Of a stretch of DNA of 39,344 nt, positions 935 to 26,432 are shown one piece after another. The position numbers were made by a program, and so were the translations under genes. A model generated the notes under the pieces. It saw only the letters and a list, made by a program, of their open reading frames with translations. It made no database searches and was not told the DNA's origin. Origin of the DNA: a virus. Its lineage: Duplodnaviria > Heunggongvirae > Uroviricota > Caudoviricetes. Each line of letters begins with the position of its first letter. Position 1 is the stretch's first letter. The DNA is taken from IMG/VR virus record IMGVR_UViG_645058835_000004, positions 1 to 39,344 of that record; one strand, written 5' to 3'.

Positions 935-2620
935 GTGAATATAAACGTCGCCGAATTGTTAAATGGGAATTACATTCTGTTATTATTTGTGGTCCTCGCG
1001 CTTGGGCTATGTCTCGGAAAGTTACGACTTGGTTCGATCCAACTGGGTAATTCCATTGGCGTTTTAGTCGTATCGCTGTTATTAGGCCAACAACATTTCA
1101 GCATTAACACCGATGCGCTTAATCTTGGCTTTATGCTGTTTATTTTCTGCGTCGGGGTCGAAGCCGGACCGAACTTTTTTTCCATTTTTTTTCGCGATGG
1201 GAAAAATTACCTAATGTTAGCACTGGTGATGGTTGGCAGTGCGCTGGTGATCGCCTTAGGGTTAGGTAAGCTGTTTGGCTGGGATATTGGCCTGACGGCC
1301 GGTATGTTAGCAGGCTCTATGACGTCGACACCGGTTCTGGTCGGTGCTGGCGATACACTGCGTCATTCCGGCATGGAAAGCAGGCAGCTCTCACTGGCAC
1401 TGGATAATCTGAGCCTCGGGTATGCCTTAACCTATTTAATCGGTCTGGTGAGTTTGATTGTTGGTGCGCGTTACTTGCCGAAATTGCAGCATCAGGACTT
1501 ACAGACCAGCGCCCAGCAAATCGCCCGCGAACGTGGCCTGGACACTGATGCCAACCGTAAGGTTTATTTACCGGTGATCCGCGCCTATCGCGTCGGCCCG
1601 GAGCTGGTGGCCTGGACCGACGGCAAAAATCTGCGTGAACTGGGTATTTATCGACAAACCGGCTGCTACATTGAACGTATTCGACGTAACGGGATTCTGG
1701 CAAATCCAGACGGTGATGCCGTGCTACAAATGGGCGATGAAATAGCGTTGGTAGGCTATCCCGACGCCCATGCCCGACTCGATCCCAGCTTCCGTAACGG
1801 TAAAGAAGTTTTCGATCGTGACCTTCTCGACATGCGTATCGTCACTGAAGAAGTGGTCGTTAAAAACCATAACGCTGTAGGTAAACGTCTCGCACAACTG
1901 AAGTTGACCGATCACGGTTGCTTCCTTAACCGCGTCATTCGTAGCCAGATTGAGATGCCGATAGATGACAACGTCGTGCTTAACAAAGGTGACGTTTTAC
2001 AAGTCAGCGGTGATGCCCGTCGCGTAAAAACCATCGCCGATCGCATCGGCTTTATCTCGATTCACAGCCAGGTCACTGACCTGCTGGCATTTTGCGCCTT
2101 CTTTGTTATTGGGCTGATGATCGGGATGATCACCTTCCAGTTCAGCACATTCAGTTTCGGCATGGGGAACGCTGCCGGGTTGTTATTCGCCGGAATTATG
2201 CTGGGCTTTATGCGTGCTAACCACCCGACCTTCGGTTACATTCCGCAAGGTGCATTAAGCATGGTGAAAGAGTTCGGCTTGATGGTGTTTATGGCAGGCG
2301 TTGGTCTGAGCGCCGGTAGCGGTATTAATAACGGCCTGGGCGCGATTGGCGGTCAGATGTTGATTGCCGGATTAATTGTCAGTCTTGTGCCCGTGGTTAT
2401 CTGTTTCTTGTTCGGTGCTTATGTATTGCGAATGAACCGCGCACTGTTGTTCGGCGCAATGATGGGCGCACGCACCTGCGCGCCGGCAATGGAGATCATC
2501 AGTGATACAGCTCGCAGTAACATCCCTGCGCTGGGCTATGCGGGCACCTACGCAATCGCCAACGTCCTGCTGACGCTGGCAGGGACAATCATCGTCATGG
2601 TATGGCCAGGATTAGGATAA
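935..2620 (+). CDS. ybjL: Putative transporter YbjL (AAE-family membrane protein with central soluble regulatory domains)
   Basis: 561-aa ORF with N- and C-terminal hydrophobic halves flanking a soluble central region; size and synteny match E. coli ybjL. Confidence 0.85.
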
Positions 2621-2732
2621 AACTGAAGTTGCCCTGAAAATGAAATTTTTTTGCACAACCGCAGAACTTTTCCGCAGGGCATCAGTCTTAATTAGTGCCA
2701 CTGCTTTTCTTTGATGTCCCCATTTTGTGGAG

Positions 2733-2775
2733 CCCATCAACCCCGCCATTTCGGTTCAAGGTTGATGGGTTTTTT
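2733..2775 (+). terminator. Rho-independent terminator downstream of ybjL
   Basis: Perfect 10-bp stem CCCATCAACC / GGTTGATGGG (2733-2742 and 2760-2769) with a 17-nt loop, followed by TTTTTT (2770-2775). Confidence 0.5.
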
Positions 2776-2855
2776 GTTGCCTGAAATTTATGCCATTCAA
2801 AATCATGATGTTAGAAGCACTGTTTTTTAATGATGGCGACAAATTGGCGGCAGCG

Positions 2856-14915: not shown

Positions 14916-16175
14916 ATGTTTAGATTATCTAGTGTCAAGATTGAAGGTTTTTGGGGAAGACTAAATGCATCATGTTCATTTAATGAAGATGTAAATATTA
15001 TTATTGGTCGAAATGGGACCGGTAAAACAACCTTTATGAATATTCTTCACTCAGTTCTGGCATTAGAACTTGAATCGTTAAATGAGAATAGTTTTGATAA
15101 TGTAACAATAAAAATAAAAGAAGGAAGCAAAACTAAAACAATAAAAGTTGTGAGTAAATTTGACATAACTAAGGCTTTGCCTACGTTTGAATATACAATT
15201 TCTAGAAAGAAATATATTATCAGATCCTTTGAAGATCGTAGGCTGCCTATATATATGAGGAGAAAATATCAGGAAGACGTTGAAAAACTTAAGTTAGAGC
15301 TAGATAAATTAGTTGCTTTATCTTCTCTATCAGTTTACCGACTTAGAAGCGGTGAAGATTTTGAAATCAGAGACAAATATGGCTCAAAATTAATCAACCC
15401 CGTTGATTACCGATTAGAACAATTATTGCAGAATCTAACAAAATATCAGCTTTACTTATCACAAAGAGCTCGTGATGTTTCTGCAAAATTACAGAAAGAG
15501 GTTCTTGCTTCTATTCTTTATAGTAAAGAAGATGGTATCGATGACACATTTAACTTTTCTTTTGATAAAGAAAAAGAACGTAGAAATTTAATAGCTGCAT
15601 ATTCTCAACTTGGAGCTTTTGATAGTGATGTCAGAAAGAAGATTAACTTTCACGTTGAATCTATTGCCAATACATTTGAAGAACTACGACTTGCAGAAAA
15701 AAACAACAGAAATATTTTAAATGTAGATTACAGATCATTTGAGGCATTACGAAAGACGCAAAGAATTATAAAGATGTCTTTAAAATCCGAGGAGGAAATA
15801 AAAAACATATTTCTTCCTATAAATCTATTTTTAGAAACATTACATGAGTTCATAACCGATAAAAAATTTAATTTTATCTCCGGTGAGCTAGTAATAGAAA
15901 ACGAGCATGGGCCGATTAGCCATAGTAATTTATCGTCTGGAGAAAAACAGCTATTAATTCTTTTTATTGAAACTTTGCTACAGCAAAACAAACCTTTCAT
16001 CTATCTTACTGATGAACCAGAATTATCACTACATATTGCATGGCAACGAAAAATAATACCTGCAATCAAACAACTTAACCCTAACGCACAAATTATCGCC
16101 GCTACGCATTCACCAGAAGTGGCCTCTAAATATCGAAATGCAATCTTTGATATGGAGAAATTGGTTCATGGATGA
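14916..16175 (+). CDS. ABC-type (SMC/RecF-like) ATPase, PARIS AriA-like candidate
   Basis: 419-aa AT-rich ORF: Walker A GRNGTGKTT (aa 31-39), signature-like LSSGEKQ, Walker B FIYLTDEPE, H-loop ATHSPE; opposite strand to the flanking tail genes. Confidence 0.6.
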   Translation: MFRLSSVKIEGFWGRLNASCSFNEDVNIIIGRNGTGKTTFMNILHSVLALELESLNENSFDNVTIKIKEGSKTKTIKVVSKFDITKALPTFEYTISRKKYIIRSFEDRRLPIYMRRKYQEDVEKLKLELDKLVALSSLSVYRLRSGEDFEIRDKYGSKLINPVDYRLEQLLQNLTKYQLYLSQRARDVSAKLQKEVLASILYSKEDGIDDTFNFSFDKEKERRNLIAAYSQLGAFDSDVRKKINFHVESIANTFEELRLAEKNNRNILNVDYRSFEALRKTQRIIKMSLKSEEEIKNIFLPINLFLETLHEFITDKKFNFISGELVIENEHGPISHSNLSSGEKQLLILFIETLLQQNKPFIYLTDEPELSLHIAWQRKIIPAIKQLNPNAQIIAATHSPEVASKYRNAIFDMEKLVHG

Positions 16176-17019
16176 TTTCCATTATTCTGCCGAAGCAGAA
16201 AATGTAATGAATTTATTTTACCAAGCTGAAGCCATGGTTTATGTTGAAGGCCCAGATGATATTTGCTTTTGGGAAATCATCTTTAATAAAGCTAGTTCAT
16301 TAAAGGTTGAAATCAAAGATGTTGGCGGCTGTGAAGAATTAAAAAAATATATTGATAGAGTTACTGATGAAGATCTTCAAATTATTATTGCATGTGATGC
16401 AGACTTCACTACATTTGAAAATGAAGAAAACGCTGATAGTCGTATTGTAAAAACTTATGGGCACTCCATCGAAAACACATTTATTGACAAAACAGGCATA
16501 TATAAGGCAATAAAAACTCTCGGGAAATTACCGCAAAAGATAATGAACGATGTCAACATCGATTCTTGGACAGAAGACTTTTATACCAAAATGGAACCCC
16601 TAATAAAACTTGATATATACAATCATATTTATAGAAAAGGCATTTCAGTTATTGGTGACAGTGCAGATCGTTTCATGAAATCTAGAAAATCAAATGAAAT
16701 TTGCGAGCAAAAAATCACGGATTACAAAAACACCATTATTGAAAAATTAGGTGTGGAACCAGATAACATCGATTCATCTTTCAAATCAAAATCGATAGAA
16801 TACAGAAAGTGGCTTAGAGGTCATTTTCTTTTTTCTGCAGTACATAGGTACATTAGCACAACTGCAGAAAAAAATGGAAAAAAAGTATCCTTATCATATG
16901 AATCACTATATTCCAATTTAATGAATACATTTGAATCTAATTTTACCAATACTCATATTGAGTTTAATCATTACCACGAAAAAATCAAAGCCATAAATAT
17001 GCCACACGAAATGAAATAA
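16138..17019 (+). CDS. Toprim/DUF4435-like nuclease partner, PARIS AriB-like candidate
   Basis: 293-aa ORF (alternative ATG at 16168 overlaps the upstream stop as ATGGATGA); N-terminal YVEGPDD glutamate motif and a later IIIACDADF (DxD) motif consistent with an OLD-type Toprim; AT-rich. Confidence 0.55.
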   Translation: MQSLIWRNWFMDDFHYSAEAENVMNLFYQAEAMVYVEGPDDICFWEIIFNKASSLKVEIKDVGGCEELKKYIDRVTDEDLQIIIACDADFTTFENEENADSRIVKTYGHSIENTFIDKTGIYKAIKTLGKLPQKIMNDVNIDSWTEDFYTKMEPLIKLDIYNHIYRKGISVIGDSADRFMKSRKSNEICEQKITDYKNTIIEKLGVEPDNIDSSFKSKSIEYRKWLRGHFLFSAVHRYISTTAEKNGKKVSLSYESLYSNLMNTFESNFTNTHIEFNHYHEKIKAINMPHEMK

Positions 17020-21642: not shown

Positions 21643-22476
21643 TCAGCAATTGGTCAGAGTGTCAGCGGGGGCGTTACCGCCTGTTGCACGCTGGCGGTAG
21701 TCCTGGCGGCTGTCTTCATGACTCAGCTTATTCACCAGTTCGTTAAAGGCGGTTTGCTGCTCCTGCAGAGCAGTCTCCAGCTCAGACAGGCGTTCTTCCT
21801 GCTCAGACAGGGATTTTTCGGTGCGTGCGCTCAGGTTCTGCTGCTCAGTGGCGACCAGCTCCACGGCCTTATGCACATCAGAGAACCGGGCATCGTCGGA
21901 CTGCTCTTTTTTGGTGAACAGCGCCGTGACACGGGTAAACAGGGACGGCTTGTCCTCCTGGATTTCTTCCAGTTCGATCACCGTTTCCTCTGCAGCGGTA
22001 AAGAGATTGGCAGGATTCTGCTTGCGGTTTGCCAGCGGGTTATGGGCTGCACTGGCGCTGAATGTCAGCATTTCCGTACCCAGACTGGCAGGGTCATCAG
22101 TGGCAGCCAGGCCGACCAGGTAGGCTTTGCCCGTATCAGCGAACTTCGGGCTGACTTCCATAGAGGTGAATAATTTCTGGCCTTTTTTCACCAGTTCCAC
22201 CAGGGACTCCGTTGGCTCAACGTCGGCATACAGCGCCATCTTGCCTGCCAGCGGACCTTCCGTGATTTCTTCAGCAAACAGCGCCGTCACCTTGCCGTAG
22301 CGGTTAAAGGTGCTGTCCGGCAGATAAGACTTGATGTGCTCAAGGTTAATCAGCGCGGTATACACCGCCGGGTTGTAGCTGGCTGCCATCTGTTCCAGCC
22401 ATTCACGCTGGATTTCGCGTCCGTCGGTGGTGGCACCTTCCACCCCGATGCGAAAACGCTTTGCTTTCACTGTCAT
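21643..22476 (-). CDS. Capsid scaffolding protein gpO
   Basis: 277-aa ORF with coiled-coil-rich C-terminal half; first gene of the O-N-M-L-X operon, divergent from P. Confidence 0.85.
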   Translation of the reverse strand: MTVKAKRFRIGVEGATTDGREIQREWLEQMAASYNPAVYTALINLEHIKSYLPDSTFNRYGKVTALFAEEITEGPLAGKMALYADVEPTESLVELVKKGQKLFTSMEVSPKFADTGKAYLVGLAATDDPASLGTEMLTFSASAAHNPLANRKQNPANLFTAAEETVIELEEIQEDKPSLFTRVTALFTKKEQSDDARFSDVHKAVELVATEQQNLSARTEKSLSEQEERLSELETALQEQQTAFNELVNKLSHEDSRQDYRQRATGGNAPADTLTNC

Positions 22477-22618: not shown

Positions 22619-24385
22619 ATGAACACCACACTGACACCCGCAGATCTCGATCCCCGTCGGCAGGCCATGCTGCTGTACTTTCAGGGATACCGCGTCGCCC
22701 GCATTGCTGAAATGCTGGGCGAGAAAGTTGCAACCGTTCACAGCTGGAAAAAACGCGACAAGTGGGGTGACTATGGGCCGCTGGATCAGATGCAGCTCAC
22801 CACCGCCGCACGCTACTGCCAGCTCATTATGAAGGAGCACAAAGAAGGGAAAGATTTCAAAGAGATTGACCTGCTGGCGCGCCAGTCGGAGCGCCACGCG
22901 CGGATCGGCAAGTTTAACAATGGCGGCAACGAAGCCGACTTAAACCCTAACGTCGCCAACCGCAACAAAGGCCCGCGCCGTCAGCCGGAAAAGAATGTCT
23001 TCACCGATGAACAGATTGAGAAGCTGGAAGAAATCTTCCATTCCTCCATGTTCAACTACCAGCGCCACTGGTGGGAAGCCGGAAAAACCAACCGCATCCG
23101 CAACCTGCTGAAGTCACGCCAGATCGGCGCGACCTTTTACTTTGCCCGTGAAGCCCTGATTGACGCCCTGCTTACCGGGCGTAACCAGATTTTCCTTTCC
23201 GCCAGCAAGGCTCAGGCCCACGTCTTTAAACAGTACATCATCGACTTCGCCAAAGAAGTGGAAGTGGAGCTGAAAGGCGATCCGATGGTGCTTCCTAACG
23301 GGGCCACACTGTATTTCCTCGGCACCAATGCCCGCACGGCCCAGAGTTACCACGGCAACCTGTATCTGGATGAATATTTCTGGATACCGAAATTCCAGGA
23401 GCTGCGCAAAGTGGCTTCCGGTATGGCTATTCACAAAAAATGGCGACAAACCTATTTTTCCACGCCATCCAGCCTGACACACAGTGCTTATCCGTTCTGG
23501 TCCGGTGCGCTGTTCAACCGAGGGCGCAACAAAGCCGATAAGGTGGACATCGACCTGTCCCACAGCAATCTGGCCCCCGGCCTGCTGTGCGCAGACGGGC
23601 AGTACCGCCAGATAGTCACTGTGGAAGATGCGGTGCGCGGCGGCTGTAACCTGTTCGACCTCGACCAGTTGCGCATGGAGTACAGCCCGGACGAATACCA
23701 GAACCTGCTGATGTGTGAGTTCGTGGACGATCTCGCGTCTGTGTTCCCACTCAGCGAGCTGCAGGCGTGCATGGTGGACAGTTGGGAAGTCTGGACCGAC
23801 TTTCATGCACTGGCCCTGCGCCCGTTTGGCTGGCGCGAAGTGTGGATCGGATATGACCCGGCGAAAGGTACGCAGAACGGCGACAGCGCCGGATGCGTGG
23901 TGGTGGCGCCGCCAGCCGTGCCGGGCGGTAAGTTCCGCATTCTTGAGCGTCACCAGTGGCGCGGAATGGACTTCCGCGCCCAGGCTGACGCCATCAAAAA
24001 ACTGACCGAACAGTACAACGTGACCTATATCGGTATCGACTCAACCGGCGTTGGTCACGGGGTTTACGAGAACGTGAAAGCGTTTTTTCCTGCCGTCCGG
24101 GAGTTTGTCTACAACCCCAACGTTAAAAACGCTCTGGTACTCAAGGCCTACGATATTATCAGCCACCGCCGTCTGGAGTTTGACGCCGGACACACCGACA
24201 TAGCGCAGTCCTTTATGGCAATCCGTCGCGCCACCACCGCCAGTGGCAACCGCCCGACCTATGAAGCCAGCCGCAGCGAAGAAGCCAGCCACGCCGATCT
24301 GGCCTGGGCAACGATGCACGCACTGTTTAACGAACCGCTGCAGGGCGAATCCGCCAATACCAGCAATATTGTGGAGATTTTTTGA
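22619..24385 (+). CDS. Terminase large (ATPase) subunit gpP
   Basis: 588-aa ORF divergent from O; sequence read as P2 gpP-like. Confidence 0.9.
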   Translation: MNTTLTPADLDPRRQAMLLYFQGYRVARIAEMLGEKVATVHSWKKRDKWGDYGPLDQMQLTTAARYCQLIMKEHKEGKDFKEIDLLARQSERHARIGKFNNGGNEADLNPNVANRNKGPRRQPEKNVFTDEQIEKLEEIFHSSMFNYQRHWWEAGKTNRIRNLLKSRQIGATFYFAREALIDALLTGRNQIFLSASKAQAHVFKQYIIDFAKEVEVELKGDPMVLPNGATLYFLGTNARTAQSYHGNLYLDEYFWIPKFQELRKVASGMAIHKKWRQTYFSTPSSLTHSAYPFWSGALFNRGRNKADKVDIDLSHSNLAPGLLCADGQYRQIVTVEDAVRGGCNLFDLDQLRMEYSPDEYQNLLMCEFVDDLASVFPLSELQACMVDSWEVWTDFHALALRPFGWREVWIGYDPAKGTQNGDSAGCVVVAPPAVPGGKFRILERHQWRGMDFRAQADAIKKLTEQYNVTYIGIDSTGVGHGVYENVKAFFPAVREFVYNPNVKNALVLKAYDIISHRRLEFDAGHTDIAQSFMAIRRATTASGNRPTYEASRSEEASHADLAWATMHALFNEPLQGESANTSNIVEIF

Positions 24386-25419
24386 TGGAAAAGAGTAAGA
24401 AGAACCGCGCTGCGGCGACGAAACAGATCCAGCTTAAAAGTCAAACTACAGCCGAAGCATTCAGCTTCGGCGATCCCGTTCCTGTTCTGGACCGCCGAGA
24501 ACTGCTGGATTATGTGGAATGCGTACAGATGGACCGCTGGTATGAGCCGCCCGTCAGCTTTGACGGACTGGCGCGCACCTTCCGCGCTGCCGTTCATCAT
24601 AGTTCCCCGATTGCAGTAAAGTGCAACATTCTGACCAGCACCTACATCCCTCACCCGCTGCTCAGCCAGCAGGCTTTTTCGCGTTTTGTGCAGGACTATC
24701 TGGTATTTGGTAACGCCTACCTGGAGAAACGCACGAACCGCTTCGGTGAAGTTATCGCCCTTGAACCTGCCTTGGCAAAATACACCCGACGCGGGTTAGA
24801 CCTGGATACCTACTGGTTTGTGCAATACGGTATGACCACGCAGCCATATCAGTTCACGAAAGGCAGCATCTTTCATCTGATGGAACCGGACATCAACCAG
24901 GAGATCTACGGCCTGCCCGGTTATCTTTCTGCCATTCCGTCAACTCTGCTCAACGAGTCCGCCACGCTGTTCCGCCGCAAGTATTACATTAACGGCAGTC
25001 ATGCAGGCTTCATCATGTACATGACCGATGCTGCGCAGAACCAGGAGGATGTGAACAACCTCCGCAATGCGATGAAAAGCGCCAAAGGTCCTGGTAACTT
25101 CCGTAACCTGTTTATGTACTCGCCTAACGGTAAAAAGGACGGGCTTCAGATTATCCCGTTGTCAGAAGTCGCAGCGAAGGATGAATTTCTGAACATCAAG
25201 AACGTCAGCCGTGATGACATGATGGCGGCGCACCGTGTGCCGCCGCAAATGATGGGGATTATGCCGAATAATGTTGGAGGGTTTGGGGATGTGGAGAAGG
25301 CCAGCCGCGTTTTTGTGCGAAATGAGTTAATTCCTTTACAAAAGCGACTTGAAGAATTTAACGAATGGTTAAATGAACCAATAATATCTTTTGACCCCTA
25401 CCAGTTGAACGCTGAATAG
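24385..25419 (+). CDS. Portal protein gpQ
   Basis: 344 aa from the ATG at 24385 (overlaps the P stop TGA); the listed ORF begins 3 nt earlier at a TTG. Confidence 0.9.
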   Translation: MEKSKKNRAAATKQIQLKSQTTAEAFSFGDPVPVLDRRELLDYVECVQMDRWYEPPVSFDGLARTFRAAVHHSSPIAVKCNILTSTYIPHPLLSQQAFSRFVQDYLVFGNAYLEKRTNRFGEVIALEPALAKYTRRGLDLDTYWFVQYGMTTQPYQFTKGSIFHLMEPDINQEIYGLPGYLSAIPSTLLNESATLFRRKYYINGSHAGFIMYMTDAAQNQEDVNNLRNAMKSAKGPGNFRNLFMYSPNGKKDGLQIIPLSEVAAKDEFLNIKNVSRDDMMAAHRVPPQMMGIMPNNVGGFGDVEKASRVFVRNELIPLQKRLEEFNEWLNEPIISFDPYQLNAE

Positions 25420-25463
25420 ATTATCCCTGTCTAACCAGTCAAGCATCGCCTGTGTGCGACTGG

Positions 25464-26009
25464 TTAAAATCTACGCCTAAATCCTAGTTTCTCACCCGGT
25501 GTCATTGCCCTACCGACCGCTCCTTCTAATAAATGAGTGTTGTTCTGTAAATGCTCGCGAGCCCACGGCTGCAAATTGAAAGCGAATCCGTCAATCATAC
25601 TGCCCACGTTTGCAGCTCTATAGGTTATGCGCTTAGCAACCAACCCCCCCATAACACCATCTTCAGGACCACACATTAGTGAGTTTTCGCCATCAATTAT
25701 ATAAGACCAGAGGTATCCCTTCTCCTCAGGAGTTAGCTTCTCCAAATAAGAGATACGTACTTTGTGCCTTTGTCTATCGCCATATAGGTCATGAAAAAAC
25801 TGATATACTCTTGCAACTAAAAAAGAGACAGCCAGTAAAAATGCTGGTCCTATGAAATTTCTATATTCTTTACGGAAACCATCAACCGCAACTTTAGAAG
25901 CTAAAGATTCTGGCAAAAAAAGGATCAAACTTAAACCACATGTAATAGCTACAAGAAGTGCCGTTGGAATCTTTCTAAAAAAATCCAATAATCCAGTAAT
26001 AGCATCCAT
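25464..26009 (-). CDS. Small membrane protein, moron between Q and cos (possible superinfection-exclusion-type protein)
   Basis: 181-aa ORF with two N-terminal hydrophobic segments and a soluble C-terminal domain; lower GC than the flanking backbone. Confidence 0.5.
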   Translation of the reverse strand: MDAITGLLDFFRKIPTALLVAITCGLSLILFLPESLASKVAVDGFRKEYRNFIGPAFLLAVSFLVARVYQFFHDLYGDRQRHKVRISYLEKLTPEEKGYLWSYIIDGENSLMCGPEDGVMGGLVAKRITYRAANVGSMIDGFAFNLQPWAREHLQNNTHLLEGAVGRAMTPGEKLGFRRRF

Positions 26010-26095
26010 TTATTTACACCTCAATATGCTCAAAAAACCGCGTCAAATTCTACCTCATAACCTTACTAAAAACACCGTATCCCCATCAGCGCGCG

Positions 26096-26114
26096 CTCGT
26101 ATCCCCGCCACGCC
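26096..26114 (-). other. Candidate cos site (cohesive-end region)
   Basis: Minus-strand GGCGTGGCGGGGATACGAG resembles the P2 cohesive end GGCGAGGCGGGGAAAGCAC as I recall it (14 of 19 identical); lies distal to Q; direct repeat CGTATCCCC 23 bp away. Confidence 0.45.
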
Positions 26115-26432
26115 TGCCCGCTTTATGTAGTGGTTTTCATGCACCTGCATGTTCTACGTAAAAGCCCGCTAGTTCTGGCGAGCCTTAGCAAAAACGATCC
26201 TTAAACGATCATGCGATTTCATGCAGCATAGTCATGCACTGTCTAAGAGAAGTGAAAGTCCCTGAATGACCACTTGAAAAACGAAACATACAGACTTACA
26301 AAGATGAAGCTCTACTGTGAGCGAGGAACATACATAGTTGCTCTGTAATAGCCAAATTTTAAGCAGGAAATCTCTTTTTTATGACAAAACTATAAAGAAA
26401 AACAGACCGTTTCATCGCTCGATGAAAATATA

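Follow-up and report, generated by a model that had tools for sequence, protein, structure and literature searches.

What is encoded by the short gene that faces the portal gene Q next to the cohesive-end site (cos) of a P2-like prophage? The question is raised by IMG/VR virus record IMGVR_UViG_645058835_000004 (Duplodnaviria; Heunggongvirae; Uroviricota; Caudoviricetes), analyzed here over its whole length of 39,344 nucleotides (nt) (hereafter, the window), which holds an almost complete P2/186-like prophage. An open reading frame (ORF) of 181 residues lies on its minus strand (25464–26009), starts with ATG and is oriented opposite to Q. An earlier note had read this ORF, from the DNA letters alone, as a moron that encodes a small membrane protein of superinfection-exclusion type, and had offered no sequence-level identification. 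By its sequence, the protein is a divergent member of the SieB family. The gene, called sieB below, probably encodes an inner-membrane protein that works as a lone abortive-infection or exclusion factor and is carried as exchangeable cargo between Q and cos.

The Pfam SieB model (PF14163) matches the protein with 79.7 bits against a gathering cut-off of 26 (expectation value, E, 2.2e-22; profile positions 5–146 of 147), so that a homology search against SieB-like proteins supplied the identity that the earlier note had lacked. P22 SieB and lambda SieB match the same model at ~100 bits (lambda 103 bits), and a precomputed PF14163 match is present in all 120 of the homologues listed. A shallow profile (A1) compared by hhalign reached just 12% and 5% probability against P22 and lambda SieB, respectively. 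A diverse profile (A2), consisting of a 133-sequence alignment, was built from the matches of a profile search over 1.84 billion representative proteins, which returned 2,128 clusters at E <= 1e-3, nearly all of 160–190 residues. With A2, P22 SieB was aligned at 90% probability (E 1.5e-6, 112 columns), from the first transmembrane helix into the C-terminal domain, with LTPEEKGYL paired to LTLGERAYL; lambda SieB was aligned at 66% probability (E 5.6e-5). In RefSeq, the orthologues from E. coli are entered as "super-infection exclusion protein B" or "superinfection exclusion B family protein"; a sequence-level label thus already exists there, and both the family and the hotspot in which the gene lies were previously known. 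The clade of ~180-residue proteins to which the window protein belongs comprises about 2,100 sequence clusters at 50% identity, and its members from enterobacterial prophages are ~55% identical to those from Pseudomonas, Vibrio or Halomonas integrons.

The ORF has a GC content of 40.7% (33% at third codon positions, GC3), lower, as had been noticed earlier, than that of the packaging genes Q (51.0%) and P (56.9%), whose GC3 is 61–71%. Divergent alleles in the same position of other P2-like prophages encode proteins 71–78% identical to it (DNA ~74%), and the portal proteins that flank them are ~95% identical. Between these alleles, the ratio of nonsynonymous to synonymous substitution rates (dN/dS) is 0.07–0.09, with synonymous sites near saturation. 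Given this ratio and the Pfam E-value of 2e-22, the ORF is not a chance reading frame, but a real gene under strong purifying selection. Its start codon is preceded by a Shine-Dalgarno sequence (Table 1), at the position of which other sieB alleles carry GGAGG or GAGG. A candidate -10 hexamer, TAGAAT, which may belong to a promoter of the gene's own, lies in a block that is kept in the divergent alleles; no good -35 element accompanies it.

Two hydrophobic peaks were found in the protein, at residues ~14–33 and ~52–72 (Kyte-Doolittle 15-residue means of 2.4 and 2.35), and both also appear in the family-wide mean. The flank after the second of them is strongly basic (family means of 5.8 for K+R versus 1.7 for D+E), and the loop between the two is neutral. 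Hydropathy and charge bias together predict that both termini are cytoplasmic, and the loop on the periplasmic side would then be only ~18 residues long. The AlphaFold2 model based on the 133 diverse sequences has a mean predicted local distance difference test score (pLDDT) of 96.4 and a predicted template-modelling score (pTM) of 0.81 (an earlier model from a shallow alignment had a pLDDT of 65), and it contains the same two helices, so that the N-terminal helix pair of the earlier note is borne out by hydropathy and model alike. The predicted layout consists of an amphipathic helix (residues 2–13), the first transmembrane helix (TM1, ~14–33; residues 16–31 in the model), a short loop that includes a helix at residues 34–39, and a second transmembrane helix (TM2, ~52–72) that runs on as a basic helix to residue 90, the model showing a single long helix from residue 43 to 90. 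It is followed by a C-terminal alpha/beta domain (residues 92–175) with helix 94–104, strand 110–113, helix 118–125, strands 129–131 and 141–146 and helix 148–156, which opens with an L-T-x-x-E motif.

Across the 133 diverse members, only L92 and E96 are invariant; T93 is nearly so, as are G54, L89, L100, G118, L123, W149, A150 and L154. Conserved catalytic-type residues are absent from this alignment, which argues against an enzymatic effector, and the bulk of the conserved sequence falls in the predicted cytoplasmic C-terminal domain. The protein thus has the architecture of the SieB family: ~180–190 residues, an N-terminal transmembrane hairpin, a basic juxtamembrane helix and a C-terminal domain led by L-T-x-x-E. 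The hairpin, taken with the family membership (PF14163 and the hhalign match to P22 SieB), supports the topology of superinfection-exclusion type that had been proposed for it. The best structural match in BFVD is a P22 ORF (Q38660, 195 residues, 'initial portion of N operon'; E 1.3e-2, probability 1.0, TM-score 0.35), an ORF of the P22 sieB region that, judged by its length and source, is likely SieB itself. Comparison with solved structures produced only sub-significant winged-helix matches (MarR, CodY, TubR and eS10), and the C-terminal domain of the model looks weakly winged-helix-like. The structure search returned no solved structure for any SieB family member.

A protein of this kind might also act at entry, its membrane hairpin impeding DNA injection in the manner of P22 SieA or T4 Imm, such that the infected cell survives. 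This explanation is unlikely. In its favor, the window protein is a predicted small inner-membrane protein; about one third of the phage-resistance integron cassettes described in one study carry transmembrane helices, and one of these, Deva, appears to block genome injection (10.1101/2024.07.02.601719); and the clade is distant from P22 SieB, so that the phenotype need not carry over. However, the only members of the family that have been characterized take effect once the phage has entered, in the middle of lytic growth (PMC10883804), and both the shortness of the predicted periplasmic loop and the mainly cytoplasmic location of the conserved sequence speak against an entry block.

The position of the gene depends on that of cos, which was placed by alignment of two phage sequences to the window, the cosR/cosL junction of P2 (50/64 identities) and the left end of 186 (21/26). 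The exact P2 cos 19-mer has no match in the window at three or fewer mismatches, and five mismatches were counted by eye in the alignment. The cos equivalent found in this way lies in a conserved block that recurs in 80 records of P2-like phages and in ~1,280 complete genomes of E. coli. The ORF thus does stand between the end of Q and the candidate cos, as the earlier note had it. The gene is convergent with Q, with a gap of 44 nt to the Q stop codon. In P2 and 186 themselves, the Q-cos interval holds just 167–176 nt and a terminator.

ORF-like DNA was found in 32 of 5,426 complete E. coli genomes, and the adjacent cos block or portal 3' region in ~1,240–1,280 of the same genomes; the gene is missing from ~97% of E. 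coli P2-like prophages. No P2-like phage among 50,697 phage records searched encodes the protein, and the sole matches in these records were SPbeta YopH and a protein of an Akkermansia phage, at ~30% identity. Other genes occupy the Q-cos interval in relatives: Salmonella phage RE-2010 and a Klebsiella phage have an AIPR abortive-infection gene there, Escherichia phage 500465-1 and E. coli D7 have a TIR gene, and E. coli 1105 has an ATP-dependent (OLD-like) nuclease gene, all in the orientation of sieB. The Q-cos interval is itself a real cargo slot, and the gene is accessory, exchangeable cargo rather than a conserved structural or packaging gene. The description as a moron in a cargo slot therefore holds, and homologues are not conserved as structural or packaging genes throughout related phages.

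These data also bear on a non-defensive explanation, namely that the SieB name is misleading for this clade and that the protein assists its own phage in packaging, lysis timing or injection, or contributes to a different fitness trait of the host. In its favor, the function of the window protein is presumed from its relatives, no defence-database model matches it, and its gene directly adjoins cos and the packaging genes. Such a role is nevertheless improbable for a gene that most E. coli P2-like prophages and all deposited P2-like phages searched do without, whose slot is filled elsewhere by TIR, AIPR or OLD-like nuclease genes, and whose close relatives occur in settings that have nothing to do with phage morphogenesis, namely integron arrays and genomic islets (see below).

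The P2-like loci compared (from E. coli, Citrobacter, IMG/VR prophages and one more distant metagenomic relative) have a constant order in every case recovered: A, a small ORF, (DinI), variable cargo, cos block, ~76 nt, sieB, ~45 nt and Q. In the window, the variable cargo is a 525-residue ORF with tetratricopeptide repeats (TPR) and a HEPN domain, and a two-gene system in which SieB would be the membrane partner or effector of this HEPN RNase, transcribed across cos, was considered. The two genes share strand and order, lie 423 nt apart and are both low in GC, and HEPN-related or DUF4145 neighbors occur near SieB-like genes in three other loci. However, proteins 100% identical to window SieB are paired with six different cargos right of cos: TPR-HEPN_LA2681 (the window copy), DUF4145, DarT with a macro domain (DarTG), KAP NTPase, an exonuclease with HipA-like and HIRAN genes, and a GNAT-containing set. 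This pairing of identical proteins with six cargos indicates that sieB is independent of its TPR-HEPN neighbor. Moreover, the alleles that are 71–78% identical have little or no cargo right of cos, cos separates the two genes, and relatives at the 43 loci outside P2-like phages have no recurring neighbor and are found as single-gene cassettes. The two-gene system is largely refuted by these context data and can be regarded as very improbable.

Most other P2-like prophages of E. coli cease to resemble the window DNA 25–35 nt before the Q stop codon; among the matches listed, all but three SieB-bearing genomes end at window positions 25385–25395 (query 586–596). Consequently, the left edge of the exchangeable module is placed inside the 3' end of Q, and the last ~10 codons of Q appear to be swapped together with the cargo. 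In the searchable parts of Rousset et al. 2022 (PMC9122126), the P2 hotspot is defined as the whole gpA-gpQ interval; the supplementary tables there include arrangements containing SieB (e.g. WP_021548667), and these parts hold no record of SieB being tested. The present comparison resolves the cos-proximal part of the hotspot into two slots, one on either side of cos, that swap cargo independently.

Relatives that are 42–59% identical to the window protein were found in Pseudomonas, Vibrio, Halomonas, Acidihalobacter, Methylophaga and Desulfarcum and in many metagenomes. At these non-P2 loci, the neighbors are co-directional small genes separated by short gaps and unrelated between loci; with near-duplicate contigs set aside, no neighbor family recurs among 124 flanking proteins of 43 loci. 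The idea of a conserved partner gene was rejected, as the upstream neighbors in Pseudomonas, Vibrio, Citrobacter and E. coli also bear no relation to one another. An attC-like element follows the stop codon in 18 of 42 non-P2 loci, compared to ~1.4% in shuffled sequence, and a GTTAGC-type core lies ~29 nt upstream of the start codon in ~17 loci. The elements are 51–140 nt long, begin with (A/G)GCTAAC 2–8 nt past the stop codon and end with CGTTA(G/A). They were detected with a relaxed pattern, the actual cores being GCTAAC/GTTAGC; the strict pattern RYYYAAC...GTTRRRY has no match in any of the 42 loci. Examples of non-P2 loci whose SieB-like genes can be read as cassettes are L014, L030, L040, L044, L051, L052, L061, L065, L068, L071 and L073 in the numbering of this analysis, and the elements of L044, L065 and L068 look like attC sites of the classic class-1 type. 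The Pseudomonas locus further contains a divergent 322-residue tyrosine recombinase (Phage_int_SAM_4 and Phage_integrase) and IS110 copies.

The clade therefore appears to travel largely as single-gene integron cassettes, which fits a protein that works alone. This lifestyle also agrees with recent work in which integron cassettes emerged as stores of genes for phage defence, many of them encoding small transmembrane proteins (10.1101/2024.07.02.601719). No paper that describes SieB as an integron cassette was found in the literature searched, and searches for SieB in defence screens or integrons yielded no functional data. The SieB-like gene of V. vulnificus (P0046; locus L015) has a core-like site upstream, and an attC-like site was not detected. 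A "small transmembrane protein" cassette of V. vulnificus that confers T4 resistance has been described (10.64898/2026.03.17.712381); it could not be matched to the SieB family. DUF4145 was seen next to SieB-like genes in two unrelated contexts, across cos in an E. coli P2-like prophage (L001, 7006–7746) and directly downstream in the Acidihalobacter chromosome (L031, 6695–7723), which may be a coincidence within defence islands.

The gap between sieB and Q contains a 35-nt hairpin with a 9-bp stem that overlaps the sieB stop codon (Table 1). It can also be written TAACCAGTC-N17-GACTGGTTAGAC, and (GAC) trails after GACTGGTTA. An intrinsic terminator between the two genes was considered and rejected, as the hairpin has no U-tract on either strand. 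A hairpin follows the stop codon in eight closer P2-type alleles (including L002, L010, L022, L023 and L025), with stems that vary on both arms (CCAGTC/GACTGG, CCAGCTG/CAACTGG and CCAGTT/AACTGG). Four alleles have TAAC...GTTAG(A/C)C at the hairpin, a sequence similar to the R''/R' boxes of attC; the window copy has no clear upstream core site. The hairpin is probably a transcript-end structure between convergent genes, and it could possibly be the remnant of an attC site.

The anti-phage role proposed for sieB derives from its homology to P22 SieB, an abortive-infection function that does not block entry but halts macromolecular synthesis midway in the lytic cycle of superinfecting P22-like phages, while P22 itself is spared (PMC10883804). 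P22 protects itself by Esc, an in-frame, N-terminally truncated SieB that inhibits SieB and is controlled by the sas antisense RNA (PMC3224144, PMC12197685). By analogy, the prophage of the window would express sieB constitutively from a weak promoter of its own, and the protein would insert as a transmembrane hairpin, which leaves the amphipathic helix of the N terminus and the C-terminal domain on the cytoplasmic side. The latter domain would probably bind a phage-derived ligand and in this way sense a product of the superinfecting phage. The infected cell would then be shut down, by a response most plausibly executed at the membrane, perhaps via oligomerization, an idea consistent with the dominant-negative behavior of Esc in P22. 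Expression in the lysogen, the anti-phage phenotype, its trigger and the effector step at the membrane are all presumed in this scheme.

Several observations weigh against this assignment. Pairwise BLASTP of the protein against P22 SieB and lambda SieB is not significant, and the relationship to both is therefore distant. The function proposed for the clade, as distinct from its family, is carried over by homology. PHROGs, NCBIfam and PADLOC gave nothing significant for the protein, with no family match in PADLOC-DB v2.0.0 at E <= 0.1. An internal start of the Esc type is missing: Esc of P22 starts at Met25, which corresponds to about residue 21 of the window protein in the hhalign A2 alignment, and, as read from the sequence, codons 19–23 contain no ATG, GTG or TTG, the first internal methionine being residue 112. 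A simple sigma-70 scan gave no convincing minus-strand promoter for the gene. Lastly, a candidate for a sas-like antisense promoter at 25964–25992 was rejected, as it is not conserved in other alleles and lies within chance expectation. With these points taken into account, a lone SieB-family abortive-infection or exclusion factor of the inner membrane is still the explanation held with moderate confidence. A more specific version, which is quite unlikely as it stands, is that the clade constitutes a single-gene defence module, in which a membrane-tethered, winged-helix-like sensor of phage nucleic acid or protein would kill or arrest the cell via its transmembrane hairpin, and that the P2 copy derives from an integron cassette captured beside cos. 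If true, such a capture would directly link integron cassette pools to phage cargo slots.

The coordinates of the gene, its surroundings and other features of the prophage are summarized in Table 1. A DinI-like gene lies between the TPR-HEPN ORF and gene A, and the stretch between sieB and the TPR-HEPN ORF is non-coding. The TPR-HEPN gene, with a GC content of 30.6%, occupies the slot that in P2 classically holds old and tin, on the A side of cos, and points toward cos. Its 525-residue product combines TPR repeats with an LA2681-like HEPN domain at the C terminus (132 bits in Pfam). In PADLOC this protein has weak matches only (generic TPR, E 3.5e-4; Csx1/Csm6 CARF+HEPN, E 0.074). In the parts of Rousset et al. 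that are searchable, HEPN_LA2681 arrangements are listed in the P2 hotspot, and a P4-locus 'HEPN-TPR' gene is among the additional tested systems (Table S2B).

Table 1. Positions of the SieB-family gene, the borders of its slot and other features in the window.
Feature	Position	Strand	Remarks
Asp-Al_Ex/TrkA_C permease gene	935-2620		host flank
Small RNA RybB	2700-2778		host flank; Rfam 105 bits
Two-gene island in tail-gene region	14916-17019	+	~31% GC
Capsid scaffold O	21643-22476	-	
Large terminase P	22619-24385	+	
Portal gene Q	24382-25419	+	Pfam Phage_portal; stop at 25419
3' end of Q, left border of exchangeable module	25385..25419	+	DNA similarity drop
Hairpin TAACCAGTC-N17-GACTGGTTA	25432..25466		overlaps sieB stop codon, in gap to Q; free energy about -16 kcal/mol on both strands
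SieB-family (PF14163) coding sequence, 181 residues	25464..26009	-	ATG start
Shine-Dalgarno GAGGTG	26017..26022	-	7 nt 5' of ATG; read from sequence
Candidate -10 hexamer TAGAAT, putative own promoter	26047..26052	-	block GTTATGAGGTAGAAT kept in alleles ~74% identical in coding DNA
Conserved cos/packaging block, right border of Q-cos slot	26085..26240		common to P2-like phages
cos cleavage-site equivalent, 19-nt cohesive end	26096..26114		minus-strand reading GGCGTGGCGGGGATACGAG; alignment of P2/186 ends
TPR-HEPN ORF, 525 residues	26433-28010	-	
Replication gene A	28884-31331	-	
CI repressor ORF, 318 residues	35073-36029	+	two Phage_CI_repr-matching stretches
Two ORFs downstream of CI repressor gene	36030-37885	+	~30% GC

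Further cargo was recognized elsewhere in the prophage. The island in the tail-gene region encodes an AAA_15/AAA_21 ATPase (419 residues) and a DUF4435 protein (293 residues), which match AriA (E 1e-38) and AriB (E 3e-24) of PADLOC and thus point to a PARIS anti-phage system in a second cargo slot. The two ORFs downstream of the CI repressor gene, located before the integrase-side ORF, are a third or fourth defence-like cargo site; they encode a 356-residue protein that matches the PADLOC candidate PDC-M11A (E 2e-130) and a 260-residue protein that weakly matches DUF3644. The CI proteins of related loci have 186–216 residues, and the start of the longer CI ORF in the window is probably listed too far upstream, or its N-terminal helix-turn-helix region is duplicated. 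Since prophage genes begin directly after RybB, one end of the prophage lies beside rybB.

The analysis turns an anonymous membrane moron into a candidate SieB-family protein that would act alone, has been modeled with confidence and belongs to a defined slot. The mechanism by which the founders of the family, P22 and lambda SieB, abort infection was never explained, and the highly conserved and widespread clade described here offers a tractable entry point for structure-function studies. The occurrence of the same clade as likely integron cassettes connects two reservoirs of defence genes, prophage hotspots and integrons. The finding as a whole is fairly ordinary prophage cargo, with a presumed activity, and would hardly surprise a specialist.

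Among known systems, P22 SieB (192 residues) is the closest in kind. It belongs to the same Pfam family, the profile alignment runs from TM1 to the C-terminal domain and includes L-T-x-x-E-x-x-Y-L, and the P22 sieB region holds the best viral structural match of the window protein. The two proteins are of similar length and share an N-terminal hydrophobic region, a basic stretch and a C-terminal domain; in P22 SieB, a Kyte-Doolittle threshold of >=1.6 flags TM1, and the second hydrophobic stretch was read by eye. Both are encoded by single genes of temperate phages outside the structural operons, P22 sieB in the early-left region of a lambdoid phage and window sieB in the Q-cos slot of a P2-like phage. 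P22 sieB has the Esc internal start and sas, whereas window sieB carries neither an Esc-type start nor a conserved antisense promoter, and of the two a phenotype is known for P22 alone. Lambda SieB (184 residues as annotated in NC_001416), of the same Pfam family, is likewise encoded by a prophage-borne single gene; its profile alignment, just 66% probable, spans the transmembrane region and reaches the LT-EE motif. The SieB relatives outside phages resemble the integron cassettes known for phage defence (BRiCs, Kieffer et al.; cassettes of sedentary chromosomal integrons), being bounded by core and attC-like sites in co-directional arrays of unrelated small genes; the window copy, in contrast, resides in a prophage, with at most a short hairpin that resembles attC (TAAC...GTTAGAC). 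Finally, window sieB shares with the cargo of the P2 gpA-gpQ hotspot (Rousset et al. 2022) its location in that interval, its low GC content, its variable presence and its exchange between near-identical prophages; window sieB, however, is on the Q side of cos, and P2 old and tin are on the side of A.

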